A DNA stretch of 64,000 nt from the UHGV virus genome UHGV-0039337; one strand, 5' to 3'. Positions 11,436 through 44,063 of the stretch are shown here, piece by piece. The DNA comes from a virus. A model generated the notes under the pieces. That model did not search any database. It was not told the DNA's origin and saw only the letters and a program-made list of their open reading frames with translations. Position 1 is the stretch's first letter, and every line of letters begins with the position of its first letter. Position numbers and translations under genes: made by a program.

Positions 11436-11451
11436 CTACCTTTCATTTTAT

Positions 11452-11489
11452 TTAAAAAAATATATGGCGATCTTTAAATCGCCATATAT
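11452..11489 (-). terminator. rho-independent terminator
   Basis: Hairpin atatggcgat/atcgccatat followed by an 8-9 nt T-run on the minus strand. Downstream of ORF 11493..11789. Confidence 0.55.
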
Positions 11490-11492
11490 CAA

Positions 11493-12737: not shown

Positions 12738-12750
12738 ATTTTACCTCCTT

Positions 12751-13626: not shown

Positions 13627-14180
13627 TATTTATCTCCTTTCGTTATTTTACATATAGTTTGCTTTATTGCAAATTCAATATCATAGTAATTATAGATATT
13701 TTCATGTTTTTCAGTTTCTTTGAAATATTTAAATTTTTGTTTGTCATCATTAATACGTCTTTCTATTTCCTTTGGATTATCTCCTCTATTTTTGAGTCTT
13801 AAATACAAATCGCCAATTTGAGAATTTACTAAAATCGGATGTAATCTATCAATTCCAAAATACTCTTTAAATGCTTTAAAACCATCAGTTTCTATAACTA
13901 TTAAATAGTCCTTATTTTTGTCTTTAAAATCGGATTTTTTATATCCGTATTTCCATACAGATCCGTCATATACGGTATATTCACGCATTTCGATAAAATC
14001 ATCAAAATTATCATCAAAGTGTTTATTGTCTACGTAATGATAATCTACATCTTTTATTTCTCCTGCTCTTATTGGTCTAGAAGTATAAGATACAATTAAA
14101 GGTATTTTAAGTCTTTTAGATACTTCACGGGCAATAGTTGTTTTTCCAGTACCTGACATGCCCATTATGCAATAAATCAT
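13626..14180 (-). CDS. guanylate kinase-like / dNMP kinase
   Basis: P-loop GMSGTGKTT and SYTSRPIRAGEIKDVDYHYV (guanylate kinase TTRP.R.GE.DG.DYHFV motif). Confidence 0.6.
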   Translation of the reverse strand: MIYCIMGMSGTGKTTIAREVSKRLKIPLIVSYTSRPIRAGEIKDVDYHYVDNKHFDDNFDDFIEMREYTVYDGSVWKYGYKKSDFKDKNKDYLIVIETDGFKAFKEYFGIDRLHPILVNSQIGDLYLRLKNRGDNPKEIERRINDDKQKFKYFKETEKHENIYNYYDIEFAIKQTICKITKGDK

Positions 14181-14192
14181 TATTTAACCTCC

Positions 14193-14420
14193 TTAAATAT
14201 CTTTTATTAGAAATTCTCTTTCATAATGTATAGTAAATTTATATCCTAATTTCTTAAGATAATGAATATACACTTTCTTTCTTCTAGGGTCTGACCATGC
14301 TACTACTATACGCTGTTTTTGATATGGATTTTCTTCTTTAATAAACTTTTCAAATGCTATAAGTCCATTTTTTGCCCAAATTAATCCTTCTAAGCCACAT
14401 GTTTCAGTTGTTATATCCAT
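14193..14420 (-). CDS. hypothetical protein
   Basis: 75-aa ORF. Confidence 0.3.
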   Translation of the reverse strand: MDITTETCGLEGLIWAKNGLIAFEKFIKEENPYQKQRIVVAWSDPRRKKVYIHYLKKLGYKFTIHYEREFLIKDI

Positions 14421-14434
14421 ACTTTTTTGTCCTT

Positions 14435-14623
14435 TTAGCCATTCCCAAATACGTTTTTTTTATTATTTATAACAAAAGATACATTCCATTCCCATGTTTT
14501 ACTAATCGTTTCTTTTCCAAGAAATAGGACTCCAGTTTGTCCATTTGAAAACTTTGTTTTTGTATAATATCCATAAAATATTTCGTTTTCTTCTAATCTT
14601 TCGAATTTATAGATAATTATCAC
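14435..14623 (-). CDS. hypothetical protein
   Basis: 62-aa ORF overlapping the next gene by 4 nt. Confidence 0.3.
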   Translation of the reverse strand: MIIIYKFERLEENEIFYGYYTKTKFSNGQTGVLFLGKETISKTWEWNVSFVINNKKNVFGNG

Positions 14624-15243
14624 TTCCTATTACTTATATATTCTTGAGCTTTATTAAAAGTATCTATTATGTCATCTATCTTGTCATCTATAGATTCATT
14701 AAGCTTGCTAAAATTAAAAATATCACGTACAGAATACGTGATCAATGTGTAAATACCTTTATAACATGTGTTTTTGTCTATATTTTCTAATATGTTTACA
14801 TTATCTGGTACATATTGATTAAGAGCAGTTGCGCCCATACTAATTATTATATCTGGCTTTACAAAATCTATTGTAAAGTCTGTATATTGTTTACAGTTCT
14901 TAAGTTCAGTATAGCTTGGTAATCTATATTCTCCATCACTACGTTTACATATACATTTAACAGCTGATGTTACAAATATATCAGACTGGTTTATTTTAGA
15001 ATAGTCAAGTAATTCTTGAAACATTTTTTTATATTCTTGAATATCTGTAGCATAATCGGTTATAATAAGAATACAAGCATTTGGATTACCATAACTTATG
15101 TCTCTCTTATTAGTGTTATTACATAATGTACATGTATTTACTTTTGTATTTAGTGTTTGCATATTATAGGGAGCCAATAATAATCTGGCAGTTTCTAAAG
15201 GGTTATTGCTCCCTATAATAGCTTTAAATGTTCTATTTTTCAT
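14620..15243 (-). CDS. uracil-DNA glycosylase superfamily protein (family 4/5-like, Fe-S type)
   Basis: CTLCNN...GNPNACILIITD...SAVKCICKR...C...IIISMGATAL follows the family-4 UDG layout (C..C, VKC, LG..A). The GEAPG catalytic box is replaced by ITDYAT. Confidence 0.45.
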   Translation of the reverse strand: MKNRTFKAIIGSNNPLETARLLLAPYNMQTLNTKVNTCTLCNNTNKRDISYGNPNACILIITDYATDIQEYKKMFQELLDYSKINQSDIFVTSAVKCICKRSDGEYRLPSYTELKNCKQYTDFTIDFVKPDIIISMGATALNQYVPDNVNILENIDKNTCYKGIYTLITYSVRDIFNFSKLNESIDDKIDDIIDTFNKAQEYISNRK

Positions 15244-15263
15244 ATCGCCAGTCCCTTTCTTAT

Positions 15264-15452
15264 TTAATTAAATATTTTTAATTTTTTACCACACATAGGA
15301 CAATATTTTATTTTACAATTTACACTTATATCGTTACCTTTTTTGTCTATACCATAAACTACTAAATATCTTGGTCCTAAATGTAATTCTAATCCTAATA
15401 CGTCTCTATTTTGTTTACAAATAGGTTCACCTTTTTCACAATATTTACACAT
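15264..15452 (-). CDS. small zinc-ribbon protein
   Basis: 62 aa with CKYCEKG ... CPMCGKK. Confidence 0.3.
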   Translation of the reverse strand: MCKYCEKGEPICKQNRDVLGLELHLGPRYLVVYGIDKKGNDISVNCKIKYCPMCGKKLKIFN

Positions 15453-15782
15453 TTATAGCACCAACTTTCCTTTGTAATGTATCATATTGTTTTCTTTTTT
15501 AGAGATATCTGTTACAGGCTCTATAATATGTCTTATTGAGCCTTTTGCTGTTGAATAAGTTATATATATAGTTTGAATATTAAAAGCATCAAATACTTCT
15601 TCTTTTGTTATTATCATGCCTTCTTCTTTTATTGCATCATAAGTTATGAATATTGCTGATATCGCTAATTCATTAGTAATTAATACTATTTTGCCTCCAT
15701 AGATTCCTCCTGCAAGTAAAAATTGAGGAGAACTATCTTCAGATGCTGCTATTTCTTCATCTAATAAGTTTACTTTTTCCAT
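15453..15782 (-). CDS. hypothetical protein
   Basis: 109-aa ORF. Confidence 0.35.
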   Translation of the reverse strand: MEKVNLLDEEIAASEDSSPQFLLAGGIYGGKIVLITNELAISAIFITYDAIKEEGMIITKEEVFDAFNIQTIYITYSTAKGSIRHIIEPVTDISKKENNMIHYKGKLVL

Positions 15783-16615
15783 TATTCGAAATCACTCGCC
15801 TTCTTAGGCTTTCCACAGCTCATATTACCTTCACCGCATTTACCATGAACACAATCTGGACCTGCATTTTTAAATAAAGCAGGAGCTATTTTCTTACATT
15901 CTTTTAGCATTTCGGTAGCCATTTCACGTATTTCCCATTGTGCTCTATTACAGCATCTTACATTAAAGAAATGCAAAAGCGATCTAGCATTCATGGTAAC
16001 TGCTATTTTAGTTTCACATGCATTAGGAAATACATATCTGGCATCTTCTATAGCTTGTTTTTCTGCTTTACTATAATCTTTAGGGAATTTTTCAGCATAT
16101 AAATTAAATACTTTTGACATGTTTGGTGCTTCATTAGGATTTTCCTTTAATATTTCTTTTATGCAACTACCAAAATCTGAAGCATGTTTATCGGTTAATA
16201 TGTCTTGCATTAATAAATCTACTAATTCGTTATATGCTTCTTGATCTCTTTTCATAGTTTCTATAAATATTTTTTTAGCTTCTGGATTATTTTTAATAGC
16301 AGGTGGTATTATATATTCAAATTGTTCTAATTTAACATATCTTTGTGATTGTTGAGAATAAGAAGCTATTCTATGTCTAACTAATTGATGCGTTAAACTT
16401 CTAGATACACCTTCTATTGCAAAAGTAAAGCTAGCATGTTCCAATGGTGATTCGTGACCTATATCTGCTAAATGGTTTACAAATTTATTTATAGACTCCG
16501 GAGTTAATTTTTCTGTTAATTCATCTACTCCTACAGCTGAATAGCATAATTTAGCAGCTTGTGCCGCCACTTTGTCTGGTTCTGGTGTGTAAGTTAGTAT
16601 TTTTACTTTTAACAC
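15782..16615 (-). CDS. thyX: flavin-dependent thymidylate synthase ThyX
   Basis: 277 aa with the ThyX signature [14 protein letters not shown] plus [12 protein letters not shown]. Confidence 0.85.
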
Positions 16616-16801
16616 TTAATCGCTCTCCTTGTTATTATTGTTAGATCTTATTATATATGGCTCATTTTTATTCACTGCATAATTTTCAGCATTTAAAGTC
16701 CATTCTATTTTTTCCCCTGTTTCAGGATTTGTAATAGAACATATAACTTTATTGTTTCTTTCTTTTTTAGACATTTTTTGTGAATCTTTTGATAATGTCA
16801 T
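16616..16801 (-). CDS. hypothetical small protein
   Basis: 61-aa ORF. Confidence 0.3.
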   Translation of the reverse strand: MTLSKDSQKMSKKERNNKVICSITNPETGEKIEWTLNAENYAVNKNEPYIIRSNNNNKESD

Positions 16802-17702: not shown

Positions 17703-19595
17703 TTAATTACATTTACTGTATCCACAATTTACACAACTAATACATCCTTCAGTTTTTAATAGTGTTTTTTCTTCACATTCAGGGCATGTCATGTAATAAT
17801 CATTTGTTTCTTTAGCTGTTTCTGTTTTTTTAGTTTCTAATGGTTTAGACTTTTCTTTTTGTTGTATTGTTTTAATTTCTATTTCAGTATCATCATCAAA
17901 ATCTATAAATTCTTCCATGAATTGATTATGAGCATTTACTAATGCATAAGCTACTGCTGATGCACATGATGAACCTTTAGAAGTTGTTTTGTCTTTATAT
18001 TTAGAAATACTATATGATGGACATACTAAAGCTGATTCTAATTGATCTGCTATTTCTTCTACTGGTGCTCCTTTTCTTGCACATAGACTAGTAAGTCTAG
18101 ATACTGCATTTAATAAAGATAAACAACCACCTTTGCTTCCTTTATCTAAGAACACTTCACGTAATTCTCCAGTTTCAGGACAGAAATAGAAAGTACAATG
18201 CAAACTTCCACATCCAGTTTTAAGTTTTCTCTTAATACCGATTACGGAATCATCAACTAATATAGTATCTCCAAATTTAAGCATAGATTTAGCTTTTTCT
18301 ATTGGAGTTAGATTCGACTCTTTTTCTTCTTTTTCATTACTTACTGTAAGAATACCTGCTCTTTCACAGTTATTTCTATATATAGTTAATCCTTTAACTC
18401 CTTTTTCGGCACCATATAAATAAATTTCTTTTATTTGTTGTGGCGTAACATCTTCTGATAAATTGACTGTAGATGAAATCGATGCGTCTATATATTTTTG
18501 AATAGTAGCTTGTACATCTACTCTATTAAATGGATCTAATTGGTGTGTTGATATAAAGTATTCAGGTAAATCATTAGTATTACCTGTAACTTTTCTATAG
18601 TCTTCAACTATTTTAGCTTCTACTGTATAGTAAACATCTTCATCATGTAAGCTTTCAGTTTTTCTAGTATAACTATAAGCAAAATTAGGTTCTACTCCAT
18701 ATGAAGTATTAAGTAATCCAGCTACAGTTCCAGTAGGTGCTATTGTAGTTAATTGGCTATTAAATAGTCCATTTTGTAGCGCAGCTTTTAGTGTATTTGT
18801 TTCGTAATAATTTAGATTTCCAACTAAATTTTGTATTATATCTGATTTAAATGTTTTGTCTGCATCATAATTTTTAAATGGTGTGTTGCCTTCTATTTTT
18901 GCATAATCAGCACTAGCTATTATACTATTATATAATAAGGCAGTACCTATTGTTTCTATCACTAATAATGATTCTGACGAACCATAAGTTATTCCTAATT
19001 TTATTAAAGTATCTGCCAATCCCATTATTCCAAGTCCTATTTGTCTTAAATCGCCTACGGTTTTACGTTGTTCTTCTAATGGATGTAAAGGCATACCTTC
19101 TATTAATACATCATTTAATGCAAATATAGCTTTATGAATTACTTTTTTAAATTCATCGTAATCAAATCTAGCGTTTGGTGTAAATGGATCAATTATAAAC
19201 TCACTTAAATTAATAGCACCAAGCAAACATGAACCTCCTGCAGGAAGAGGTTCTTCAGCACATGGATTCACACCTACATAATTAAAATCATCATAATATT
19301 GCATTAAGTTATAATTTTGTATTTTATCCCAATAAAGAATTCCTGGTTCTGCCATTCTCCAATTGTTTAATGCTAGTTTATCCATGATTTTATTAGCGTC
19401 GATTAATTTTACTATAGTATTTCCATCTTCTAATTTAAATGTACAAGGATAACTCTCTTTATTTTTAACAGCTTCAATAAAATTACTATTTATCATAACT
19501 GAAATATTTGCTTTAGTTATGGCATTTAAATCTGTTTTTATATCTATAAATTCTTCAATGTCTGGGTGGCTTACATCCATGGATATCATGAGTGC
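17703..19595 (-). CDS. ribonucleotide reductase, class II-like (NrdJ-type) catalytic subunit, exon 2
   Basis: In-frame upstream extension ALMISMDVSHPDIEEFI (RNR RRGA-L-x-VxHPDI). Active-site finger NPCAEEPLPAGGSCLLGAINL. C-terminal CxxC...CxxC zinc ribbon and no RVCGY glycyl-radical motif, so not class III. Confidence 0.75.
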   Translation of the reverse strand, partial: ALMISMDVSHPDIEEFIDIKTDLNAITKANISVMINSNFIEAVKNKESYPCTFKLEDGNTIVKLIDANKIMDKLALNNWRMAEPGILYWDKIQNYNLMQYYDDFNYVGVNPCAEEPLPAGGSCLLGAINLSEFIIDPFTPNARFDYDEFKKVIHKAIFALNDVLIEGMPLHPLEEQRKTVGDLRQIGLGIMGLADTLIKLGITYGSSESLLVIETIGTALLYNSIIASADYAKIEGNTPFKNYDADKTFKSDIIQNLVGNLNYYETNTLKAALQNGLFNSQLTTIAPTGTVAGLLNTSYGVEPNFAYSYTRKTESLHDEDVYYTVEAKIVEDYRKVTGNTNDLPEYFISTHQLDPFNRVDVQATIQKYIDASISSTVNLSEDVTPQQIKEIYLYGAEKGVKGLTIYRNNCERAGILTVSNEKEEKESNLTPIEKAKSMLKFGDTILVDDSVIGIKRKLKTGCGSLHCTFYFCPETGELREVFLDKGSKGGCLSLLNAVSRLTSLCARKGAPVEEIADQLESALVCPSYSISKYKDKTTSKGSSCASAVAYALVNAHNQFMEEFIDFDDDTEIEIKTIQQKEKSKPLETKKTETAKETNDYYMTCPECEEKTLLKTEGCISCVNCGYSKCN

Positions 19596-20537
19596 CGATT
19601 GTACCGTTTCTTTCGAAATACTTTAACATCGTTTTATACGATCGGTCTAGACTATATCTTCAACTCATATTCTTTTACCGAATATGAGTTGCTTGGTACT
19701 TCCGGTCAGGATTTTCACCTAATTACCCGTACTCTACTCGGTTATTCTCTTAGATATTTCTTCTAAGATATCCTTTCGATAGTCGTTTGACTTTATTTTA
19801 TATTATATAGCTTCATAAGTTATTATATAGTTTTTTAATTTTCCTCTACTTGGCATAGGTTTTTTACCCTCTGCATATAATCCTAAAACCGTTATATTTC
19901 CCGCTGAATATCCAAAGTATCTTGCTAATTCTGATAGTGATACGAATTCTTTAATAAAGTTTCCTTCTCTATCATAAAGGTATACATGCTTATTGCAAGT
20001 ACAACAATCATCACCGTATGCTTGCTGTGTGTTTTCGGATATTGTGCCCCATTTTAGGTTTGTATAATGATTATTTAATTTATTGTTATCTAAATGTAAT
20101 ACTATAGGGTAATCATTTGGATTTTCTAAATAAGTCATAGCGACTAATCTATGCACCCTAAAATGTCTTCTTATTCCATCTTTACATACTAACAATAAAT
20201 CTTCATAACCATCTTTCATTATTCTTGTCGATAAAAACCTTTTTAATATTTTTGAATATATTTGCCCATCTTCGGTTATACTATAATAATCTTGTTTTAT
20301 ATTGAAGCAATCCAAATCTTTTATAAAAATCATCTCCTAATAATTTTTATAAGAAATGGCATAATATAAAATCTTAGCACAGGATTAGCATACCTATATG
20401 GCTTTAGCCTCCCCTGTTAGCACACTCATTAATAACCATTTCCTGTTATTACTAATATACGCTGAGTGTACACCCTAGTTTTTAGGTTCACCAAGTTTTT
20501 CATTATATATCACTATATAAAGGCGGCCGATATTTTA
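19596..20537 (-). mobile_element. group I intron (about 0.94 kb) in RNR gene at the RRG|A codons
   Basis: Exon 1 ends QKGRRG (GGT, U). Exon 2 begins ALMISMD after tcG. An HNH ORF lies in the middle, flanked by structured segments of about 205 nt (19596-19802 and 20334-20537). Confidence 0.65.
19803..20333 (-). CDS. HNH homing endonuclease (intron-encoded, HNH_3 type)
   Basis: 176 aa with RVHRLVAMTY...HLDNNKLNNHYTNLKWGTISEN, typical of phage HNH homing endonucleases. Confidence 0.75.
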   Translation of the reverse strand: MIFIKDLDCFNIKQDYYSITEDGQIYSKILKRFLSTRIMKDGYEDLLLVCKDGIRRHFRVHRLVAMTYLENPNDYPIVLHLDNNKLNNHYTNLKWGTISENTQQAYGDDCCTCNKHVYLYDREGNFIKEFVSLSELARYFGYSAGNITVLGLYAEGKKPMPSRGKLKNYIITYEAI

Positions 20538-20984
20538 ACCGCGTCTACCTTTTTGACCTATAAGTCCTGTTGTCATAGAATATAAATCCATAAAAGATAC
20601 TGCTCCTGATGTGGTTTTGGCTGCATTATGTACTGTAGCTTTATTTGGTCTAAGTTTTGATATATCAATTCCCACACCTCCACCATAGGAGAAAGTTCTA
20701 GCTAATTTTTTTGCCGTATCAAATATACTTTCTAAATTATCTTCAGGTGGTTCTAAAACATAACAATTAGAATAAGTTACTTTTGTTCCATTTTTTTGTA
20801 ATCCTCTATTAGCAAGTATTCTGCCTCCATATATAAATTTTTTATCAAGTATTAATTGCTGTACTTCTTTATCCCCGTTAGTTACTCTTTCTAAAAATTC
20901 ATCAAATGTTTCATTATTATATCTGTATTTTCTTTCATATTCACTTACAGATAGTTTTGATGTTAGCCATTCTTTTATATCCAA
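20538..20984 (-). CDS. ribonucleotide reductase exon 1 (N-terminal 149 aa)
   Basis: FSYGGGVGIDISKLRP ... SGAVSFMDLY ... QKGRRG are the conserved RNR N-terminal motifs. The ORF terminates right after RRG. Confidence 0.75.
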
Positions 20985-28356: not shown

Positions 28357-28752
28357 CTATAATATCGTATAATCTTCTTCAGACATTATATATTGTCTTT
28401 TTTCTGTATTCATTACTTTGCTATTCATACACATAGAAACTATTTTATTAGCTTCTTCTGCGTCTTCAATTGTTATTTTAATTAGTGTTCTATGTTCTGG
28501 ATTCATAGTTGAATCCCATAAACCTTCTGCTGATAATTCACCTAATCCTTTTAAATAAGTTATATTTAATTTTTTATTAGGATATTGTTGTTTAATAGAA
28601 TTTAATTCAGCATCATCTATAGCATATAACGTAGTATTTTTATCTACTATAATCTTATATAATGGTGGGCATGATAAATATAAATAACCTTCTTCTATTA
28701 TAGGTCTAAAATATCTATAAAATAATGTTATATACAAAGTAGCTATATGATA
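28357..28752 (-). CDS. gyrB: type II topoisomerase subunit B (GyrB-like), exon 3 (C-terminal about 131 aa)
   Basis: In-frame extension GYHIAMYITLFYRYF...LSCPPLYKI...YLKGLGELSAEGLW matches the GyrB C-terminus (GSHIRTLLLTFFYR ... PPLYK ... YKGLGEM). Confidence 0.75.
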   Translation of the reverse strand, partial: YHIATLYITLFYRYFRPIIEEGYLYLSCPPLYKIIVDKNTTLYAIDDAELNSIKQQYPNKKLNITYLKGLGELSAEGLWDSTMNPEHRTLIKITIEDAEEANKIVSMCMNSKVMNTEKRQYIMSEEDYTIL

Positions 28753-30013
28753 ACCCGATTACACCCTCGGTTTCCCGATATTTATCAGGGGTCTAGACTA
28801 TACCTTCGCCATTTCAGGCGCACTGAACGTAGTCGTTGGACTCCTCCTGTTCGGAGTCGGCTGCTGATTTTCCATTAATTCACCCTTAGCACGTATTTAA
28901 TAATACGCTTTTGTCTCAGCTTAGGTAATCCTCAATACTTTTTTCTGCTTTCGCAACATTCATATAAGTTTGTTTCATCTTATATTGTAGTGATTAAGGC
29001 TTTAGGAATTCCCAGCAAGCGGTCAGTGTAATAATCCTATAGGTTATTATTCCCTATAAGACGACTATATTTATAAATTAATTATATTTTAAATAGAGAT
29101 TTAAATAACGTTCAAATTTGCGTTCCATATATATAGTACAATCTAAATATAACCAACTCATTATTTGATATACTTGATTATCACCACATAATCTTAAACT
29201 TTGAACGTTTCCGTCTCCGTTTTTATGTCTTTTTTGTAATTTTACATTCTCTTTATTTAAAATTGTTTTAAGCGTTTCTAAAAATTCTGTAGTACCTAAT
29301 ATACTAATATCATAAGTATGATATTTTTTATCTCCTGATATTGACAGAGATCCATCTCCATCAAAATATCCTCTAATAAAATGTCTTTGTAATTCTTTTG
29401 GTACTATATCCTCTGAAGGAAATAAACAATGATTGGTTTTATCAAGGCTAAAACCTTTATTAACTAAATCTTGATACATCTTTTTGCTAGTTATAACCAT
29501 TTTTGACTCTCTTGTAATACAATCAAAACTTTTATTGTAATGTTCATAATCTCTTATTGGATACGTAGAGTCTATATCTTTTTTAAATTTTTCTATCATA
29601 TTACGATCTTTTGTGGCTAACGTTAATCCTATTTCATTCCCTCTATTTGTTATATATCCATCAGCCATTAAAAAACCCAACCAATAAGCTTTATGTTCTG
29701 TATCAATAACTTCAAAGTAATTATCATTTACTTTATTTCTTCTTAAATCATCAGGACTTTTCTTTTGATATAGTCCTGCTTTAATTAAAACTGGATAAAT
29801 AGTTTGAGGTTTTCTATCTTTTAACGATTCTTTATTCTCACAAATCCATTTTACGCTATGTCCCTCTTTATATTTATTGCATATCCATTTTTTATCTTCT
29901 TCAGAAAATGATTTTCTTATTCTTTTTGTCAATATATTCACCCCAATATTTAGTTTCTTTATCTAAATATTACGGTGAACGTAGACGCTTATAATAATTA
30001 TTTATAAATCTTA
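28753..30013 (-). mobile_element. group I intron (about 1.26 kb) in gyrB at the Toprim DxDxD|G codons
   Basis: Exon 2 ends DADVD (GAT, U) followed directly by a stop. Exon 3 begins GYHI after tcG. A LAGLIDADG ORF starts about 72 nt into the insert. A 325-nt structured block 28753-29077 lies 3' of it. Confidence 0.65.
29078..29941 (-). CDS. LAGLIDADG homing endonuclease (intron-encoded)
   Basis: 287 aa with YWLGFLMADGYI and FIRGYFDGDGSL. Same family as the UvrD- and clpX-intron HEGs. Confidence 0.85.
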   Translation of the reverse strand: MNILTKRIRKSFSEEDKKWICNKYKEGHSVKWICENKESLKDRKPQTIYPVLIKAGLYQKKSPDDLRRNKVNDNYFEVIDTEHKAYWLGFLMADGYITNRGNEIGLTLATKDRNMIEKFKKDIDSTYPIRDYEHYNKSFDCITRESKMVITSKKMYQDLVNKGFSLDKTNHCLFPSEDIVPKELQRHFIRGYFDGDGSLSISGDKKYHTYDISILGTTEFLETLKTILNKENVKLQKRHKNGDGNVQSLRLCGDNQVYQIMSWLYLDCTIYMERKFERYLNLYLKYN

Positions 30014-31194
30014 ATCAACATCGGCATCGCTCATTATTATTATCTTATGATATCGTAAGTTATCTATATTAAAATCTTCACCTATACCACACTCTAAACT
30101 ATATAATATATCTTTTAATTTATCAGATGATAATACTTTATCTAAAGTCATTTCTTCTACATTTGGTATTTTCCCGAATACAGGTAATATTGCTTGAGTA
30201 TTCTTGTCACATGCGGTAGTTGCTGTAGAAGCTGCACTATCACCTTCAACTAAAAATATTTCGCAAGCTTCAGGATCTTTACTAGCACATTTTACTAATT
30301 TTTCAACTTTTTTATTAGCGAAATTTTTATTCTTTCTTGCAGCTTCTTTTGCTTTATAGGCGGCTTCTCTGATCTTGTTTGATTCAATAACTTTATTAAG
30401 TATATTATCTTTATCATTCGGTAGTTTATCAAATTGATCTTCACAAAACTCCTTTACTTCACTATACAATATGCTTGCTATTACAGGCATATTTAAATAA
30501 TCTTTTCCTTGTCCTATATAGTTAGGATCTGGTACCTTGACACTAACTACTGCTATTATACCTTCACGTGTGTCTTCTGCTGTTAATTGTGTTTTAGATT
30601 TAGGATATTCATTTTCAAAGCAATCTTTAACAGCTGTAGCTATACCACGTTTAAATCCTGTTATATTAGAAGATTTACCATCGGTATTTATAACATTATT
30701 AGTAAACGCTATTATATTATCACTATAAGCCTGAGTCCAAGCAAAAGCTACAGATATTTCACACGATTTATCATTATCCATTTCAACTGATTTAGTTAAG
30801 AACCAAGGATCATGAATACTTTCTTTGTTAGCTGTAAGTTCTTCAACATATGCTTTAACACCCTCTGGATAATTATAGATTTCATGTATGTTATAGTCCC
30901 CATATTCTATATCTACTTTAATAGTAAGTTCAGGATTAAGATAGCATATTTGTTTCATTCTGCTATTAATAGCTGGTATATTAAAATCATCTTTATCAGC
31001 CCATATTTCAGGATCTGGTTCACATTGTATAAGAGTCATAGTAAAGTCTTCACGTGATATTTCTTCTACTTCGTGTAATTTATGAGTCACTAATCCTTGT
31101 TCAAATTCCATATCATATACTTTACCACCAGTATATATTTCAACATGGAACCATTTAGATAAGAAGTTTATACATGATGCTCCTACGCCATTTA
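30014..31194 (-). CDS. gyrB: GyrB-like subunit, exon 2 (ATPase C-part, transducer, Toprim start)
   Basis: The frame extends upstream of the first Met to NGVGASCINFLS (GyrB HGVGVSVVNALS). Contains EGVKAYVE, DTREGIIAVVSVKVPDPNYIGQGKD, and Toprim EIFLVEGDSA ... KIIIMSDADVD. Confidence 0.75.
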
Positions 31195-31869
31195 CAATAG
31201 TTCACATAGGTTCGCTATTCCTATGCCGCACTATTACGTGCAGCCTCTAGTTTTCACTAGGGATCGGACTATATCATCACCCTTTAATAAGGGGTTCTCC
31301 ATTTCCATTTAATAGGTAATTAAGAGCCTTATTACGGCTCACCTAACCGCTTGGCTGTACTCTACTCACTTCTGTTACTATCAGAATCGCTTTCGATAGT
31401 CTCTGAACTTTCATTTATTCCATTTAAATAACCAAATTCTTGTTCTTTTTCTCTTCTAAAATCAATACACATCTGTTTAGCTTGTTCATAACCATATTTT
31501 TTACACGATCTTGATATTCTACATTTTTTATGTTCATTATCTTTTATTTCTGCAATCCAAGAATCTCTACTTTTATCATATCTTACACCTTTTATTCCGC
31601 TTGTGTTACATTCTCTTAATGATGTATTTTTTAAATTTTCGTGTCTTGTTGTTATTCTTAAATTGTTTTTACGATTATCCAGACCGTTATGATTTAAATG
31701 ATCTACAACAATGTCGTAACCTTCTACGTCTAATATTAATCTGTGCAAATATATTGGTTATATAAAATAAATGTTTAGCTGCTGATTGCCATATGCTTAT
31801 GCACTTAGGTTTCCAGCAATTAAAAGAATTTTTCGATACACATTACTGCGTAAAGGGACTAAATAGTTA
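31195..31869 (-). mobile_element. group I intron (about 0.68 kb) in gyrB ATPase-domain codons (..SAGL|NGVG..)
   Basis: Exon 1 reads K-S-A-G-L then a stop 2 codons later. Splicing GGAT|TAAATGGC restores AGLNGVGAS, which is colinear with GyrB GGLHGVGVS. The 5' exon ends in U and the intron ends in G. An HNH-AP2 ORF sits in the middle, with structured flanks 31195-31361 and 31749-31869. Confidence 0.6.
31362..31748 (-). CDS. HNH homing endonuclease with AP2-like DNA-binding domain (intron-encoded)
   Basis: 128 aa. DHLNHNGLDNRKNNLRITTRHENLKN (HNH_3) followed by GVRYDKSRDSWIAEI (AP2-like). Confidence 0.7.
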   Translation of the reverse strand: MHRLILDVEGYDIVVDHLNHNGLDNRKNNLRITTRHENLKNTSLRECNTSGIKGVRYDKSRDSWIAEIKDNEHKKCRISRSCKKYGYEQAKQMCIDFRREKEQEFGYLNGINESSETIESDSDSNRSE

Positions 31870-32236
31870 ATCCAGCTGATTTAACACCTTCTTCAAATTT
31901 AGTACCAGCTTTTAATCTAGACATACATAATTCAGCTATGGTACATCCTGGTATTTCATCTGATTCTTCTGTAGGTAACGCACCTGCGCTATCTGTTACT
32001 GTTATCCATCCTTGTTTATCTATATTTACTGTTATCTCTTTCTTGGTATATAAATGACTACTTTCGTCATTAACTAGAATATCTACACCATTATCTACTA
32101 ATTCATATATACAATAGTCTTTATTTGGTATATACATTCCCGGTCTAAGTCTTACGTGTTCTCTGTCGTCGAGAAGTTTAAAATCATCTGCTTGTCTTAC
32201 TTTTTTAACCATTTTAGGTTTTTTAATTTTACTCAA
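31870..32236 (-). CDS. gyrB: GyrB-like subunit, exon 1 (N-terminal ATP-binding about 122 aa)
   Basis: DDFKLLDDREHVRLRPGMYI, ELVDNGVD, ITVTDSAGALP, AELCMSRLKAGTKFEEGVKSAGL match the GyrB N-terminal motifs (RKRPGMYIG, E.VDN..DE, V.DNGRGIP, HAGGKFD..YKVSGGL). Confidence 0.75.
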
Positions 32237-32251
32237 TCTATCACCTCATAA

Positions 32252-32527
32252 CTATATATCTTGTTCTAACCATTTTGAATAATCAAACATTTTACTACTA
32301 TCGTGATTTATTTCTAATAATATTTTTTTAAAATATTTATATAATGCATATTCATCATATTCATTTAATATAACAACAGGTATATTTACTATTTTGTATT
32401 CCACTTTATTTATTGTTAATTCTATATGAAAAAATTCTACACCTTTTTCTTTTAACAATTCTTTCATAAAGTTAGTATCTAATTCAGTATATTCTCCTGA
32501 TATTGTTTTTGTATATGTTCTAATCAT
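32252..32527 (-). CDS. hypothetical protein
   Basis: 91-aa ORF. Confidence 0.3.
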   Translation of the reverse strand: MIRTYTKTISGEYTELDTNFMKELLKEKGVEFFHIELTINKVEYKIVNIPVVILNEYDEYALYKYFKKILLEINHDSSKMFDYSKWLEQDI

Positions 32528-33312
32528 TTATTAAACACTTCTTTAAATGCTTTATGATTTTCTGAACTTTTATTTGGTATAGCAAATACTATAGTCTTAA
32601 ATAACTTAGGATATTTATCTAATATTTCTTTAAAGATTTTGGCTACTTCATATGGATCTTGTCCAAATACACCGCATCCATAAGCTCCTAGTATTAAAGT
32701 ATTTACATCATTCTTTACAGCCATGTCTATTATAAATTTTATTCTGCTTTTTAATACTTTATAATTTTCTTTGTTAGATACATTGCAATATTTCTGTGCT
32801 GCAGTTTTATTAGGCGCTGCACATGTTATAACATCACAATATACATATCTATCTTCTCTTTTAAATAATACATCTGGAGTGTATAATCCTCTGTTAAGAT
32901 ATAATGCTTTGTTCTTATGTTGATTATTCAATGAATAAAAGTCAGGTATTTCTTTTAATACATTATACAAATATGATTCATGACATAAGCATTCTTCTTG
33001 TGCTTTTGATCCTTTTAAAAACATACCGCCTGGATTCTTATATGAAGAAAAATTTAACACTGCAGTTATTTCATCTTTGTATTCAAATATTGCAGTTACA
33101 CTATCAAGATCACATATTATAATGTCAGCGTTTTTATCACGATTATTGTATTTTTCTAGTTCCATATTAAAACCTGTATTATATAAGTATGTCTCATCTA
33201 TACAGTCTTTAATTTCTTCTTTAAATTTTTCTTCCATTTGTTCAGTATGTTTTTTTGCTACTTGTGCTCTTTGTTCTTTATTGATCCAATATTGAGAAGT
33301 ATTATAAGCCAT
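32524..33312 (-). CDS. macrodomain protein of the microbial PARG-like family (DUF2263 / TIGR02452-like)
   Basis: 262 aa. LNFSSYKNPGGMFLKGSKAQEECLCHESYLY ... CAAPN ... LILGAYGCGVFGQDP fits the DUF2263 signature (NFAS..NPGGGFL.G..AQEE.LCR.S.LY ... AAPN ... LVLGAWGCGVFGNDP). Confidence 0.6.
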   Translation of the reverse strand: MAYNTSQYWINKEQRAQVAKKHTEQMEEKFKEEIKDCIDETYLYNTGFNMELEKYNNRDKNADIIICDLDSVTAIFEYKDEITAVLNFSSYKNPGGMFLKGSKAQEECLCHESYLYNVLKEIPDFYSLNNQHKNKALYLNRGLYTPDVLFKREDRYVYCDVITCAAPNKTAAQKYCNVSNKENYKVLKSRIKFIIDMAVKNDVNTLILGAYGCGVFGQDPYEVAKIFKEILDKYPKLFKTIVFAIPNKSSENHKAFKEVFNK

Positions 33313-33478
33313 TACTTATCGCACCTTTCTATTTTATATTCTATTATTTTTCTGGCATATTTATCATTTAGAAGTAATGAATCACGGATTAATTCATGAA
33401 TATATTTTATAGGTCCCATACCATAAAATTTATATTCATTACTATTGTCATATCTCAAATATATTCTGTACATCATTA

Positions 33479-33904
33479 TTAATTACCTTCATCATCTATT
33501 TCGTCTATTAAGATTGTACCTTTAATAGTTGATATTGCTGCTGTTATTAAAGTTTGTACAGTTTCTTCTCTTGTAAATTGCCCTTCTAAAGGTGCAGAAT
33601 ATTTAGCTGGTCTATATTGTTTGCCTTGTATTTTATTAGCGTCTTCCATATGATATACGTTGATTACGAATATATTTACTATCGGAGTACCATTTTTATG
33701 ATCTATGCTTTGCCCGTCATATATAAATACATATGGTTCTTCATCTCCGTGTTCATTAACTATATATTCTTCTATTTTGCCTTCCCACATAAGTCTGTTA
33801 GCTAATTCTTTAGCTACTGCTCTTATTTCTTCATGCATTTTTATATCGCTGTCTATTTCAGCCCATCCAGCTTTTAAAATTTTATTAATAGTTTCATTAT
33901 CCAT
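33479..33904 (-). CDS. hypothetical protein
   Basis: 141-aa ORF. Confidence 0.35.
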   Translation of the reverse strand: MDNETINKILKAGWAEIDSDIKMHEEIRAVAKELANRLMWEGKIEEYIVNEHGDEEPYVFIYDGQSIDHKNGTPIVNIFVINVYHMEDANKIQGKQYRPAKYSAPLEGQFTREETVQTLITAAISTIKGTILIDEIDDEGN

Positions 33905-33971
33905 TATATCACTCCTTTAAAAAGATAATTAAGGCATAGACAACGCAGTGTCATCTATGCCTGTTTAGCCA

Positions 33972-34406
33972 TTATTTAGCTACAGCTGGTTTCTTTATTC
34001 CTGGTTTACCTGGTTTAGAAGGTTTAGTAGCTGCTGGTTTAGTAGCTCTATGACGTTCTGTTGTAGGTGCTTCTCCATTATCAGTAGTTTTAGCACTATC
34101 TAAAACATTTAAAGTATTTACATGACATTTAGTAAATGTTCTATTTTCTCCTTCTTCGTTTTGATATTGGTCTACTCTCATTTCACCATCTATTTCTACT
34201 AATCTTCCTTTAGTTACATAGTTACTTATGAATTCAGCAGTTTTTCCAAATGCTTCACATGGTATAAAGTCAGCTGGTCTATTACCATCTTTATCTTTAT
34301 AGTTTCTATTTACTGCAACAGTAAATTTAGCTACCATATTATTTTCTCCTATTGCTTTCACTTCTGGGTCTTTACAAAATCTTCCAGTTAATACTAATTT
34401 ATTCAT
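33972..34406 (-). CDS. ssb: single-stranded DNA-binding protein (SSB, OB-fold)
   Basis: MNKLVLTGRFCKDPEVKAIGENNMVAKFTVAVNR...DFIPCEAFGKTAEFISNYVTKGRLVEIDGEMRVDQYQNEEGENR is the canonical SSB OB-fold pattern. Confidence 0.75.
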   Translation of the reverse strand: MNKLVLTGRFCKDPEVKAIGENNMVAKFTVAVNRNYKDKDGNRPADFIPCEAFGKTAEFISNYVTKGRLVEIDGEMRVDQYQNEEGENRTFTKCHVNTLNVLDSAKTTDNGEAPTTERHRATKPAATKPSKPGKPGIKKPAVAK

Positions 34407-34559
34407 TTTAAATCTCCTTATATTTGCAGGGCGTCACCTGCTACCTTTAATTATTTTTTTATTTTTTACATTAAAAAAGCCACCATGGGCTTGTCCATTT
34501 AAGCAAAATTTACTAAGGCTGGACCTTGCCTATTTTATTACATGTATAATATATGCTTC

Positions 34560-35380: not shown

Positions 35381-36250
35381 TTATTCAATTGCTTCTTTTG
35401 CTGTTTCTCTTAATATATCTACTGTTAAATCTTCACGTACTATTACTTTTTTTACTGTAGGATCTCCTGGAACCTCAAATTTGGTTTCAAATAATATATC
35501 TTCCATTACTGTTCTTAATGCTCTAGCACCCATTTTTCTTTCTTTTGCTTTTTGTGCTATTTTAGGCAATGCACCTTCTTCTATGTCAAAATCTATACCA
35601 TCCATTTTAAATTCTTCTTTATATTGTTTTAATAAAGCATGTTTAGGTTGAGTTAGAATCTTAACCATGGCTTCTTCACTTAATTCATGATATACAGCTA
35701 ATAATGGACATCTGCCTATAACTTCTGGTATTATACCAAATTCTACTAAATCATCTGGTATGACTTGAGATATAACATTATTATAATCCATTTCTCCTTT
35801 TGATTCTGGCTTACCATTAAACCCTATGCCTACAGATCCTTTTTTAAGTCTTTTATTTATTATTTCTTCTAGACCTACAAATGCTCCACCTAATATAAAT
35901 AATATATTAGTAGTGTCTATTTTAACGCTTTTAGAATCTAATTTATTTAATTTAACGTCCATTTCGCAGCCTTCAATCATTTTTAGTATAGATTGTTGTA
36001 CTGCTTTACCGTTAACATCTTTGTTATCTCCTCTTGCATCAGATGCTTTAATTTTGTCAAATTCATCTATAAATACTATTCCTTTTTGTGTTTTTTCTAC
36101 GTCTCTACCTGCTGCGATATATAAATCTTTTATCATATCCTCTGTATCACGTCCAACATATCCTGTGCTTGAGAAAGAACTGGCGTCTTGTATAGTAAAT
36201 GGTATATCCATACAAGAACATATAGCTCTTATGGTTTCACTTTTCCCACT
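35381..36250 (-). CDS. clpX: ClpX ATPase, exon 2
   Basis: In-frame extension SGKSETIRAICSCMDIPFTIQDASSFSSTGYVGRDTE...GIVFIDEFDKI aligns with ClpX [37 protein letters not shown]...GIVYIDEIDKI. Confidence 0.8.
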   Translation of the reverse strand, partial: SGKSETIRAICSCMDIPFTIQDASSFSSTGYVGRDTEDMIKDLYIAAGRDVEKTQKGIVFIDEFDKIKASDARGDNKDVNGKAVQQSILKMIEGCEMDVKLNKLDSKSVKIDTTNILFILGGAFVGLEEIINKRLKKGSVGIGFNGKPESKGEMDYNNVISQVIPDDLVEFGIIPEVIGRCPLLAVYHELSEEAMVKILTQPKHALLKQYKEEFKMDGIDFDIEEGALPKIAQKAKERKMGARALRTVMEDILFETKFEVPGDPTVKKVIVREDLTVDILRETAKEAIE

Positions 36251-37441
36251 CGTTCGTTATTAGCGCATAGTTTTTTATCTATGCCTCTGGGCCATTACAG
36301 CCATTTTCATCGGTGTGTTAATTCACACTCAGTCTAGCGTACTTGTTTACGTAATTTACTTGGACAAAACGTAGGACGGCCTCTTGGTGCATTATTTCAG
36401 CACTACGCGTTGCGCCTGACGTGTTGACATATCAACACTCACTATATCACTATAGCTTATCCACTTTTATAGTGGCGCCTTCGGGCTCGAATACACTGTA
36501 TGCAATTTACAATCATACTTTACGTGATCTTCGCTTAATTCCATCCTCATAATCTAGAGTCTTCATTGTCCTTTTGGCTCTAGACGGCAGTAATCTAAGT
36601 ATTTTTTATATTTTCTATCTAAATATATTGTAGCATCTTTATATAACCATTTTAAAAATGCTTCTAACGCTTTAGTACTTGATATATTTAATTCAGGTAT
36701 TTTATAGTCATATTCATAAATTCTAATATGATCTATGGTTTCTTCAACATTATATTTAATAGTTTCTATTAATGATTCTAAAACTGTTCTATCATAGCAT
36801 ATAATTCTAAAAGTAGTACTACCTTTAGTTCTTATGTTTAGGTTTCCATCTCCATCGTATAATCCTCTTATAAAATGATTCATATATTCATTAGGTATAT
36901 CTGGAACAACCCATCCATATGTTTTGTTATGCACTACTCCTAGTTCTTTTAATTTTGTTGCTATAATTTTATCTCTTATATTTATTCTATAATAATCAGT
37001 TCCATTTATTGTTTTTATTCCTACTTTGTGGCTGCTTTCTATATCTGCTTTAAATTTTTCTATGTGTTCTTTATCTTTTATACATATGTCGAGTCCTCCA
37101 TCTTCTGATAAATATCCATCAGCAAATATAAAACCTAACCAATAAGCACTTTTTTCATTCCATTCATTAAAGAAATTACTATTAACTGATTTTTTATTAT
37201 AATGTTGAACTATATTAACACCTGCGGCTTTCATTCTAATAGAAAGCGTACCTCTGTCTCTTTTTAACTGTTTTGCTATTTTAGTAATACTTAAGCCTTC
37301 ATTAAACATATTAGTGGCTTGTTGTATCTCTTCATCTGATATCCTCAAGATAATCACTCCATATTGTGTATTTATCTCTATATTACCGCTACCAGATGAT
37401 CTAATAGAAAATATTGTAAATTTTACTTAGATTATTTGTTT
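36251..37441 (-). mobile_element. group I intron (about 1.19 kb) in clpX inside the Walker A codons (GPTG|SGKS)
   Basis: Exon 1 ends GPTG (GGT, U) then KQII-stop. A LAGLIDADG ORF starts about 84 nt into the insert. The 312-nt structured block 36251-36562 shares the core (ggacggcctcttggtg ... ctacgcgttgcgcctg) with the UvrD and AAA+ introns. Exon 2 begins after acG. Confidence 0.65.
36563..37357 (-). CDS. LAGLIDADG homing endonuclease (intron-encoded)
   Basis: 264 aa with YWLGFIFADGYL and FIRGLYDGDGNL. Over half its residues look identical to ORF 4044..4850 by eye. Confidence 0.85.
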   Translation of the reverse strand: MIILRISDEEIQQATNMFNEGLSITKIAKQLKRDRGTLSIRMKAAGVNIVQHYNKKSVNSNFFNEWNEKSAYWLGFIFADGYLSEDGGLDICIKDKEHIEKFKADIESSHKVGIKTINGTDYYRINIRDKIIATKLKELGVVHNKTYGWVVPDIPNEYMNHFIRGLYDGDGNLNIRTKGSTTFRIICYDRTVLESLIETIKYNVEETIDHIRIYEYDYKIPELNISSTKALEAFLKWLYKDATIYLDRKYKKYLDYCRLEPKGQ

Positions 37442-37843
37442 ACCGGTTGGGCCTAAGAATATAATATTTGATTTATCTATTCTTAATTTATTAGATGCAC
37501 TAGGATCTTCTTCTAATCTTTTTATTCTTTTAGTATGAGAATATAGTTCTGTTGCTATAGTTACTTTAGGTCTTTCTTGTTCTATAACCCAATCATCAAG
37601 ATATTTCTTTATATCTCTTGGAGTATTTATTTCAGTTTTTGCTTGTTCACTATCTTTTTCTAATAAAACTTTTTGTCTTTCTTCAAATTTTTCATATCCT
37701 AATTTTAAACAATTAGAACATATTCTTATCTTTTTGCCATCTACATTTGCTTTAGATTTGTATAAAACAATACCTTTTTCACTTAATTCTTCTTCAGTAT
37801 ATTCTTTACCACAGAAATTACATTTTTTAGTATTCTCAGCCAT
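37442..37843 (-). CDS. clpX: ClpX ATPase, exon 1 (zinc-binding N-domain to Walker A start)
   Basis: CNFCGK...CSNC zinc finger. RDIKKYLDDWVIEQERPKVTIATELYSHTKRIKRL...KSNIIFLGPTG aligns with ClpX PKEI...LD.YVIGQE.AKK.L.VAVYNHYKRL...KSNILLIGPTG. Confidence 0.8.
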
Positions 37844-43204: not shown

Positions 43205-43441
43205 TTAATATAATAAGTTTTCAGGCCATAGCCATTCTTTATTGTCTACATTTAATAAATATCTTTTAGTATCATTTCCTGCAAATCTTGCTATTACTAT
43301 ACTATACATACCTGCGTATTCTAACATTTCAGGAGTAATGTCTTCTCCATTATCTTTAAATTCTTGTAGATTTTCTACTATTTTTACTCTATCACCTATA
43401 TAATACATAAATATTTTAACACCTCCATATTTATTTTTCAT
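43205..43441 (-). CDS. hypothetical protein downstream of hicA-like gene
   Basis: 78 aa, overlaps the HicA-like ORF by 11 nt. No HicB (RNase H-like/RHH) features recognised. Confidence 0.3.
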   Translation of the reverse strand: MKNKYGGVKIFMYYIGDRVKIVENLQEFKDNGEDITPEMLEYAGMYSIVIARFAGNDTKRYLLNVDNKEWLWPENLLY

Positions 43442-43682
43442 ATAGAAACTGGGCCAGTTTTTCTCTACTAGACCCAGTTTGCTTTAATATTTTACTTACA
43501 GTACCTTGACATAGAGTACCTTTTTTATTCGGAACCGGCACGGATATACCTTTGTTATTTTTAAATATGATATGTGTACTATTAGAATGTCTAGTTTCTA
43601 CATATCCTATATGATTAAGGAATTTTCGTATATCTTTATATTTAATCCTTATCCTATTGTTTGTTTTAATGTTGTCACTCAC
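43431..43682 (-). CDS. HicA-like (YcfA family) small RNA-binding/toxin-domain protein
   Basis: 83 aa. IRKFLNHIGYVETRHSNSTHIIFKNNKGISVPVPNKKGTLCQGTVSKILKQTG fits the HicA pattern (L...G....R..GSH.....+.....+P.H.+..+..G.+..IL+Q.G). Confidence 0.55.
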   Translation of the reverse strand: MSDNIKTNNRIRIKYKDIRKFLNHIGYVETRHSNSTHIIFKNNKGISVPVPNKKGTLCQGTVSKILKQTGSSREKLAQFLYEK

Positions 43683-43979: not shown

Positions 43980-44063
43980 TGGAGCCAATAGTAGGAATTG
44001 AACCTGCATCTGTAAAGATAAAATAAATTATTTTTACCGTTCTTACAATTGAACTATATCGGC
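43980..44063 (-). tRNA. tRNA-like gene with encoded CCA and atypically expanded anticodon arm (identity undetermined)
   Basis: The minus strand reads GCCGATA-TA-GTTC-AATTGTAA-GAAC-G-[GTAAA-16nt-TTTAC]-AGAT-GCAGG-TTCAATT-CCTAC-TATTGGC-T-CCA. The acceptor, D-arm and T-arm (GTTCAATTC T-loop) are good. The anticodon region is 26 nt instead of 17. Confidence 0.5.

Follow-up and report, generated by a model that had tools for sequence, protein, structure and literature searches.

Bacterial-type poly(ADP-ribose) glycohydrolases (PARGs) hydrolyse poly(ADP-ribose) (PAR), as is established for TcPARG, HaPARG, DrPARG and the clostridial CdPARG (PMC8120803, PMC6445106, PMC5966428). Here we describe a PARG-like gene in UHGV virus genome UHGV-0039337, of which one stretch of 64,000 nucleotides (the window) was analysed, and we weigh the roles it may have in the phage. 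SCO0909 and DRB0099 were the only hydrolases of a tested panel to remove the ADP-ribose that RhsP2 installs on the 2'-OH of RNA, a 1''-2' linkage as in PAR; they also hydrolyse ADP-ribose linked to 5'-phosphates of RNA or DNA and shield cells from RhsP2 (Lu et al., NAR 2025, PMC11833690). The same two enzymes are inactive on ADP-ribosylated uracil (PMC13036486), and reversal of guanosine ADP-ribosylation is reported for NADARs only (PMC11833690). Glu- or Ser-linked mono-ADP-ribose is not hydrolysed by DrPARG (PMC6445106), and human PARG cannot remove the ADP-ribose that DarT places on DNA (PMC9967889). As for gene setting, the ligase-PARG-HD/Pnk operon of Deinococcus radiodurans has been proposed as a possible end-repair module (PMC11833690), and Clostridioides difficile and Herpetosiphon aurantiacus each pair a PARP with a PARG of the DUF2263 type (PMC5966428).

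On the phage side, the anti-DarTG enzymes described so far are of the NADAR or DarG2 type (PMC11825919, PMC13309987). A survey of jumbo phages reported Macro and NADAR domains, for which it predicted the degradation of ADP-ribose-derived signals and a part in RNA repair that depends on NAD (Iyer et al. 2021, PMC7824862). It also lists RlaP, Thg1, RNA ligases and NAD salvage in jumbo phages, with ADP-ribosyltransferases (ARTs) common and PARPs in a few, and it contains no mention of the PARG/DUF2263 subtype. We found no experimental study of a phage-encoded PARG in the literature searched; NARP3, considered as possible phage PARG literature, is the unrelated NadR/PnuC pathway, and the 'PARG' matched in the crAss paper is the surname of an author. 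Ours is an annotation-level finding; the enzyme family is well characterised and the setting fits published predictions.

The identical PARG protein is found on 12 assembled contigs, and proteins from both ends of the window are found on contigs of 271,414 and 269,929 bp. This makes the source an uncultured gut jumbo phage of some 270 kb; contigs of about this size are ena:ERZ28615758 scaffold_15 and ena:ERZ28618049 scaffold_23. Judged by its sequence the phage is distant from those deposited; its GyrA is at most 35% identical to that of any phage record, and a megablast of positions 31800-34500 against 50,697 phage records gave no match. No integrase was seen in the window. Pfam scans covered 87 of the window's open reading frames (ORFs), 10 singly and 77 concatenated into 20 pseudo-proteins, and precomputed Pfam annotation covered about 10 kb past each window end; some 190 kb of the genome lies outside this view.

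Family, fold and active site of the phage protein

An earlier note, made from the letters alone, had assigned this ORF to the PARG-like/TIGR02452 (DUF2263) macrodomains on the strength of a motif string. The hidden Markov model searches bear this out, the bounds of the ORF agree exactly, on the minus strand (Table 1), and each piece of the string is present in the translation, at residues 93-116, 165-168 (AAPN) and G209-P220. The NCBIfam TIGR02452 profile matches with 191.8 bits (E=1.5e-56; curated cutoff 50), with residues 27-257 of the ORF covering profile positions 22-265 of 266. The Pfam family PF10021 (PARG_cat_microb, 'Microbial-type PARG, catalytic domain') matches with 95.4 bits (E=5.4e-27; cutoff 23.5). 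The generic Macro family PF01661 reaches only 17 bits, under its cutoff of 22, through a weak match at residues 179-226, as is expected because PARG is a divergent branch of the macrodomain superfamily. A phmmer search of all PDB chains returned poly(ADP-ribose) glycohydrolases only, those of D. radiodurans (5zd*) at E=1.5e-24 to about 2e-24 and of Thermomonospora curvata (3si*) at about 1e-22, and a profile built from 60 homologues found DrPARG at 7e-36 and TcPARG at 1e-31. At the level of sequence the family match is far beyond chance. NADAR families are absent from the Pfam and NCBIfam matches of the ORF even at E<=1, PADLOC gave no match, including its DarG models, and no PHROGs family matches it.

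The residues that matter for catalysis in the solved enzymes are all in place. Residues 93-116 read NPGGMFLKGSKAQEECLCHESYLY, from N93 through Q105-E106-E107 to SYLY. In the HMMER alignments Glu111 and Glu112 of DrPARG correspond to E106 and E107, Gly101 to G96 and Ser95 to S90; the roles of these four DrPARG residues have been described, and the E112A mutant is dead (PMC6445106). G95, G96, S90, Q105, E106 and E107 are invariant in a 60-sequence alignment, and G95, G96 and the QEE triplet are also kept in all 99 homologues, which span an identity range of 41-100%. The AAPN motif occurs as CAAPN in 87 of the 99, with A165, P167 and N168 invariant among the 60. The diphosphate loop aligns to GAWGCGVFRNDP of DrPARG, G209-A-Y-G-C-G-V-F216 standing against GAWGCGVF there, and it overlaps the weak PF01661 match. 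Six of its positions (G209, A210, G212, C213, G214 and V215) are invariant in the 60 sequences, and a regular expression finds the GAxGCGVF loop in 90 of the 99 homologues.

One position of functional interest is ambiguous in the alignment. A C-terminal 'ribose cap' (Arg268 of TcPARG) restricts TcPARG to exo-glycohydrolase activity and is absent in DrPARG, which has Thr267 (PMC6445106). Depending on a 2-residue gap, Thr267 pairs with K254 or with N252 of the phage protein.

The fold agrees with the sequence. The earlier note had expected a macrodomain, and an AlphaFold2 model built on the 60-sequence alignment has one, with a mean predicted local distance difference test score (pLDDT) of 88.8 and a predicted template modelling score (pTM) of 0.87. 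Helices at residues 12-29 and 31-40 precede the alpha/beta core and form the N-terminal helical extension specific to PARGs. The top Foldseek matches in the PDB are TcPARG 3sih, with a template modelling score (TM) of 0.80 (281 columns, E 4e-17), and DrPARG 5zde, with a TM of 0.76. Generic macrodomains (MacroD1/2, macroH2A, TARG1) reach a TM of 0.35-0.53, TARG1 (4j5q) being at 0.35.

The gene is also maintained. When it is compared with its orthologue on the related phage contig L001, which is 78% identical, the nonsynonymous rate (dN) is 0.12 and the synonymous rate (dS) 0.53; the ratio of about 0.23 indicates purifying selection on the PARG gene.

Homologues and their gene neighbours

There are 2,812 relatives of the protein in a large protein database, with a dense cloud at 58-61% identity. 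A tblastn search of the isolate-phage collection found the gene in 20 of 50,697 records, never at more than 43% identity. Huge phages account for 19 of these (Lak megaphages, Bacillus phage G with gp114, and uncultured phage genomes of about 600 kb) and the other is a 23-kb fragment. In IMG/VR there are at least 79 loci, for the most part on viral contigs of 100-195 kb. The closest genome matches, up to 57%, are Lachnospiraceae and other Clostridia, which suggests the host group and a gene pool common to these bacteria and their large phages.

We called and clustered the ORFs of 99 homologue-bearing loci, about 8 kb on each side of the gene, and identified the recurrent neighbour families by Pfam. 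At least one RNA-repair, NAD-salvage, SIR2 or second Macro-like gene lies within 8 kb in 44 of the 99. RNA-repair genes are within 8 kb of PARG in 33 loci and within 5 kb in 26, in at least 5 different arrangements (Table 1) that involve the RNA ligase PF09414, a P-loop kinase (Pnk) with an HD protein, Thg1, and RlaP or RlaP-like nucleotidyltransferases. Replication genes are within 5 kb in nine loci, made up of one lineage comprising this phage and L001 and a second lineage in which PARG lies between a primase and a DHH protein (L092-L098). NAD-salvage genes are within 8 kb in ten loci. Seven of these ten have a gene for a PncA-like isochorismatase that begins 18-214 bp past the 3' end of PARG, with NAPRTase-NMNAT-NadE or Prs-NAMPT-(Macro-like)-NadE after it. 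A canonical SIR2 lies 1.5-3.5 kb from PARG in seven loci. A SIR2 partner in the bacterial loci L009 and L010 was considered and set aside as unconfirmed, the neighbour there scoring 17.4 bits on PF02146, under the cutoff of 24. The counts come without a genome-wide background rate, so the RNA-repair and NAD links of the homologues are suggestive, not statistically established.

Some of these contigs deserve a remark of their own. The large gut-phage contigs L071, L041, L050, L055 (PARG 8001-8780, then +18 to +3700 bp), L034 and L049 carry such NAD gene sets. Where isochorismatase, NAPRTase, NMNAT and NadE stand directly 3' of PARG they make up an apparently complete Preiss-Handler route; other contigs have the Prs-NAMPT-Macro-like-NadE series. 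NARP1, NARP2 and NARP3, as summarised in PMC13464706, differ from these sets, through which phages might rebuild NAD+ by yet another route. The region 1-16783 of a 508-kb contig (L002, ena:ERZ28617382 scaffold_2) holds a PARG homologue 59% identical to ours whose neighbours include PemK, GmrSD_N, SIR2, RlaP, metallophosphoesterases and an intein-interrupted DNA methylase, and it looks like a conflict or anti-defence island.

Readings of the function

We consider it very likely that the ORF encodes an active glycohydrolase that accepts ADP-ribose in ribose-ribose or phosphate linkage. A mechanism is suggested by the solved homologues. An ADP-ribose unit would be bound in the macrodomain cleft by the GAYGCGVF diphosphate loop together with G96 and S90, and E106 would position the distal ribose. 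E107, which corresponds to Glu112 of DrPARG and Glu115 of TcPARG, would then serve as acid/base, so that the C1'' bond would be broken through an oxocarbenium-like intermediate and free ADP-ribose released. Enzymes of this type are known to cut the ribose(1''-2')ribose O-glycosidic bond, found in PAR and in ADP-ribose on RNA 2'-OH, and the ester of ADP-ribose to terminal RNA or DNA phosphates.

What such an enzyme would do for the phage is a separate matter. The reading we prefer, and to which we give about an even chance, is that of an eraser expressed with the replication genes, which would clear PARG-sensitive adducts of ADP-ribose on nucleic acids, or PAR, made by the ARTs of the host or of competitors. 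Adducts installed by these enzymes would be stripped from the nucleic acids of the phage or of the translation machinery, or PAR from proteins, and the ends and backbones of RNA and DNA would thereby be kept usable for ligation, replication and translation.

Several points weigh against this. We found no description in the literature searched of an anti-phage defence that makes 2'-OH- or phosphate-linked ADP-ribose, and RhsP2 itself is a weapon between bacteria that does not serve in defence against phages (PMC11833690). The linkage to RNA repair belongs to other lineages; in the window phage PARG is not within an RNA-repair cassette and lies between SSB and gyrB. Neither in the window nor in the roughly 10 kb on either side of it does Pfam find an ART, PARP, KptA/Tpt1 or RNA ligase. 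Within the protein, Met97 stands where the published signature GGG-X6-8-QEE has its third Gly (G95-G96-M97, X7, QEE), a strict mismatch to that string, and residues 105-110 of the catalytic loop are the sole internal stretch of low confidence in the model. Members of the clade differ at this third position (M, K, G, A or R), and the canonical GGG persists in some close relatives, so Met97 is probably a trait of the clade and not a sign of decay; the only residue of the triplet for which we found an assigned role, Gly101 of DrPARG, is conserved as G96 (PMC6445106).

The strongest competitor, also named in the earlier note for NAD-derived signals, is that the enzyme processes small molecules or signals made from NAD or ADP-ribose, as part of a phage toolkit for NAD+ counter-defence. 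It might linearise the cyclic ADP-ribose isomers of TIR/Thoeris systems, which contain a 1''-2' or 1''-3' ribose-ribose bond, or clear sirtuin products such as O-acyl-ADP-ribose, or oligomers of ADP-ribose. Indirect support comes from the gene neighbourhoods, namely the seven loci with isochorismatase and further NAD genes, the seven with a canonical SIR2, and the divergent SIR2-like protein that this phage encodes some 32 kb from PARG. According to a preprint, 2'cADPR and 3'cADPR are cyclised by ribose-ribose O-glycosidic bonds (bioRxiv 10.1101/2022.05.07.491051), and the Macro and NADAR proteins of jumbo phages have been predicted to degrade signals derived from ADP-ribose (PMC7824862). However, cleavage of glycocyclic ADP-ribose by a PARG-type enzyme is not reported in the literature searched, and NAD-salvage genes are near PARG in only the ten loci counted above. 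Pfam finds none in the window or about 10 kb beyond each end, and the gene sits amid replication genes. To our knowledge, the known anti-Thoeris proteins are sponges and not PARG-type hydrolases, which also counts against it. We regard this role as possible, though it is clearly the less probable of the two.

A little less probable again is that PARG erases marks made by the phage's own ART, PARP or SIR2-like writer on host or phage targets, a temporal toggle like the bacterial pairs of writer and eraser. ARTs are common in jumbo phages and PARPs occur in a few (PMC7824862), and the pairing of PARP with PARG in C. difficile and H. aurantiacus gives the idea a bacterial model. This phage also has a candidate writer in the same replication region, a SIR2-like ORF of 269 aa between DnaG primase and HU (Table 1), and other loci have SIR2 near PARG as well. 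The SIR2-like protein is divergent, however. It matches PF02146 with 26 bits against a cutoff of 24, the match begins at profile position 30, and its N-terminus is without the GAGxS motif present in canonical phage SIR2s such as that of L002. An ART or PARP is not detected in the window or in about 20 kb of flanks, out of a genome of about 270 kb, and the protein-proximal mono-ADP-ribose made by T4-type ARTs is not removed by bacterial PARGs (PMC6445106).

We would also mention, improbable as we think it, that PARG might represent an undescribed class of dedicated anti-defence enzymes. Such an enzyme would either cleave the ring bond of the Thoeris/TIR messengers 2'cADPR or 3'cADPR, so that the alarm is destroyed by catalysis and not sequestered by a sponge, or erase ADP-ribose from 2'-OH groups or phosphate ends where unrecognised immune ARTs of gut Clostridia had placed it. 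We raise it because the bond chemistry matches what PARGs cut and because the homologues occur in NAD-salvage, SIR2 and RNA-repair islands.

The earlier note had proposed the removal of ADP-ribose from DNA or proteins marked by DarT-like or ART-type defences; PARG would then act in the manner of an orphan antitoxin. The position of the gene amid DNA replication genes and adjoining SSB is attractive here since DarT modifies single-stranded DNA, and phages are known to counter DarTG with orphan enzymes of the DarG-like or NADAR kind (PMC11825919, PMC13309987). Those enzymes are of the NADAR or DarG2/TARG1 type and not PARGs, however, and the published specificities set out at the beginning disfavour both substrates. 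DarT-made DNA adducts resist human PARG (PMC9967889), uracil-linked ADP-ribose resists SCO0909 and DRB0099 (PMC13036486) and the guanosine adduct is left to NADARs (PMC11833690); protein mono-ADP-ribose of the Glu- or Ser-linked kind resists DrPARG (PMC6445106). The protein itself points the same way, with its sub-threshold score on PF01661, no DarG match in PADLOC, and a TM of 0.35 to TARG1 against 0.80 to PARG. We therefore find these substrates quite improbable for this enzyme. The general idea that PARG reverses or processes ADP-ribose chemistry aimed at the phage is a plausible one for its putative role.

Least probable of all, and in our opinion very doubtful, is a reader or sponge that binds ADP-ribose with the fold kept and activity lost, for although Met97 and the low-confidence loop could be taken that way, the two catalytic Glu and all other residues of the signature are unchanged throughout the 99 homologues, some of which have the canonical GGG, the catalytic loop of DrPARG is likewise flexible (PMC6445106), and the gene is under purifying selection.

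Surroundings of the gene and comparison with known systems

The window has a G+C content of 24-31%, and 99 of its 104 ORFs are on the minus strand. The earlier note had placed PARG in a replication module, and rightly so, its neighbours being SSB, gyrB, gyrA, RecA, DNA ligase, RNR, ThyX, UDG, Rad52, UvrD and SNF2. By Pfam the replication and repair genes of the window comprise SNF2 and UvrD helicases, a Rad52-like protein, UDG, an ATP-dependent DNA ligase, RecA, GyrA, GyrB and SSB, and those for nucleotide metabolism comprise a dNMP-kinase-like protein, ThyX, and RNR with a radical-SAM activase. The window further encodes ClpX/ClpP, a sigma-like protein, PhoH-PIN and ferritin, with an amidase farther along.

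The local order is SSB, a terminator-like hairpin, a 141-aa ORF, a 54-aa ORF, PARG, a 91-aa ORF and gyrB. The transcription unit containing PARG probably has its 5' limit at the hairpin, which is one of four sites in a terminator consensus scan in which 1.0 were expected. The stop of the 54-aa ORF overlaps the PARG start (TAATG), with a GAAAGG Shine-Dalgarno sequence inside the 54-aa ORF, and the start of the 91-aa ORF overlaps the PARG stop (ATGA); these overlaps indicate co-translation of PARG within one unit. Pfam and PADLOC found nothing for the 141-aa or 54-aa ORF, nor did PHROGs and PADLOC for the four small or unknown neighbours of PARG. In L001 the order is SSB - 142 aa - small ORF - PARG (78% identical) - gyrB - gyrA - RecA - ligase, the 91-aa ORF is not conserved, and an AP2-like ORF takes its place.

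Table 1. Position of PARG, its motifs and neighbours, other features of the window and its flanks, and RNA-repair arrangements at homologous loci
Feature	Position or locus	Strand	Remarks
PARG-like ORF	32524-33312	minus	262 aa, ATG start; bacterial-type poly(ADP-ribose) glycohydrolase family PF10021 / TIGR02452 / DUF2263
PARG signature loop	32992-33036	minus	residues 93-107, NPGGMFLKGSKAQEE, GGM-X7-QEE; aligned to DrPARG
Conserved AAPN motif	32809-32820	minus	residues 165-168; aligns to 'APAPN' of DrPARG
Glycine-rich diphosphate-binding loop of the macrodomain	32653-32688	minus	residues 209-220, GAYGCGVFGQDP
SSB	33972-34406	minus	PF00436, 98 bits; upstream replication gene
Terminator-like hairpin	33932-33962	minus	between SSB and 141-aa ORF; consensus scan only
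141-aa ORF	33479-33904	minus	no known function; first gene past the hairpin; kept with PARG only in this phage lineage
54-aa ORF	33312-33476	minus	no known function; upstream of PARG; conserved in L001 (family 260)
91-aa ORF	32252-32527	minus	no known function; downstream of PARG
gyrB in three ORFs	31859-32236, 30011-31111, 28357-28737 (span 28357-32236)	minus	downstream of PARG; Pfam
HNH-AP2 ORF interrupting gyrB	31362-31748	minus	Pfam
LAGLIDADG ORF interrupting gyrB	29078-29941	minus	Pfam
clpX	35381-37843		split or flanked
RNR	17703-20984		split or flanked
uvrD	1972-4850		split or flanked
AAA ATPase	7046-9811		split or flanked
tRNA	43983-44063	minus	Rfam, 47.7 bits, cutoff 29
HicA toxin-like ORF	43431-43682	minus	PF07927, E 1.3e-9
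Two tandem paralogous small-ORF pairs	61785-63670	minus	130/127 aa and 196/166 aa
SIR2-like ORF	L109 14170-14979		same genome, about 13 kb past the low-coordinate window end
ISL3-family transposase and YopX ORF	L112 4700-6007		variant of the same phage, past the high-coordinate window end
PARG - RNA ligase - P-loop kinase/HD - LigA	L066-L070, L103		
RNA ligase two genes upstream of PARG	L028-L032		
PARG - x - RlaP - two metallophosphoesterases	L002		508-kb contig
PARG - x - x - Thg1	L074-L080		
PARG - RNA ligase - x - RNA ligase	L011		Fusicatenibacter isolate

The gyrB gene next to PARG is split by two endonuclease-type ORFs. A variant contig, L105, is without the HNH-AP2 insertion and has the first gyrB junction intact as a 510-aa ORF, and L001 has an intact gyrB of 640 aa, so the insertions are mobile, recent and polymorphic. 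An Rfam scan at gathering thresholds found no group I or II introns in the split genes; a functional GyrB may be reached through undetected introns or split subunits. At least four other genes (clpX, RNR, uvrD and an AAA ATPase) are likewise broken up or bordered by ORFs of the LAGLIDADG, HNH or zinc-finger HNH kind, which makes homing endonucleases unusually numerous for 64 kb of DNA.

Other features lie farther off. Rfam calls a tRNA where ARAGORN finds none anywhere in the window, and this tRNA could be atypical or intron-containing. Near it is a HicA toxin-like ORF, for which Pfam recognised no HicB partner among the scanned nearby ORFs of at least 75 aa. The two tandem pairs of small ORFs are similar at their N-termini and have no Pfam match. 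Past the high-coordinate end, one variant of the phage has an inserted ISL3-family transposase with a YopX ORF and another (L111) is without them.

Bacteria are increasingly found to use ADP-ribosylation of DNA and RNA in immunity and in attacks on one another (DarTG, CmdTAC, RhsP2). The hydrolases with which phages have so far been known to respond are of the NADAR and DarG types, and the PARG type has another bond specificity, for ribose-ribose and phosphate-linked ADP-ribose. That PARG is kept in a jumbo-phage lineage and occurs on at least 79 large viral contigs suggests that phages meet, or make use of, these other linkages as well. If active, the enzyme would be a probe for the matching host writer in gut Clostridia and would extend to viruses the 'immunity/repair' role proposed for bacterial PARGs. 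The recurrence of phage PARG beside RNA-repair and NAD-salvage genes provides concrete hypotheses.

How, then, does this locus compare with known systems? Like the phage anti-DarTG enzymes (the T4-like NADAR AdfB and the chimallivirus DarG2-like macrodomain), it encodes a stand-alone phage ADP-ribose hydrolase that plausibly undoes host ADP-ribosylation of nucleic acids; unlike the tested PARGs, the NADAR and TARG1/DarG types cleave base-linked ADP-ribose (PMC11833690, PMC13036486, PMC9967889). In the literature searched, no experiment ties a PARG to a phage defence system. With the jumbo-phage Macro and NADAR proteins of Iyer et al. 2021 (PMC7824862) it shares a setting of NAD+/ADP-ribose conflict, and the homologues' neighbours (RlaP, Thg1, RNA ligase, NAD salvage, SIR2) fit the themes of that survey. 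It differs in being of the PARG subtype, which is rare in isolate phages and has no PHROG family. The operon DRB0100-DRB0099-DRB0098 (ligase - PARG - HD/Pnk) resembles the cassettes of L066-L070 and L103, with RNA ligase PF09414, kinase plus HD, and LigA, and other homologues adjoin RlaP, Thg1 or other RNA ligases. The window phage has no such cassette, the only ligase seen being the ATP-dependent DNA ligase about 10 kb off.

The bacterial PARGs (TcPARG 3SIG; DRB0099 5ZDA-G; SCO0909; CdPARG of C. difficile CD160) are the closest comparison. The phage protein is 25-28% identical to the solved enzymes and has GGM where they have GGG. Its gene is in the replication block of a jumbo phage, with no partner PARP, ligase or Pnk gene found near it in this genome, whereas theirs are in a bacterial chromosome or DNA-damage operon. 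Despite these differences the phage protein belongs to the same families, has the same fold with its N-terminal extension, and shares QEE, the equivalents of Gly101 and Ser95, AAPN and the diphosphate loop, all within 262 aa where the bacterial enzymes have about 250-277.

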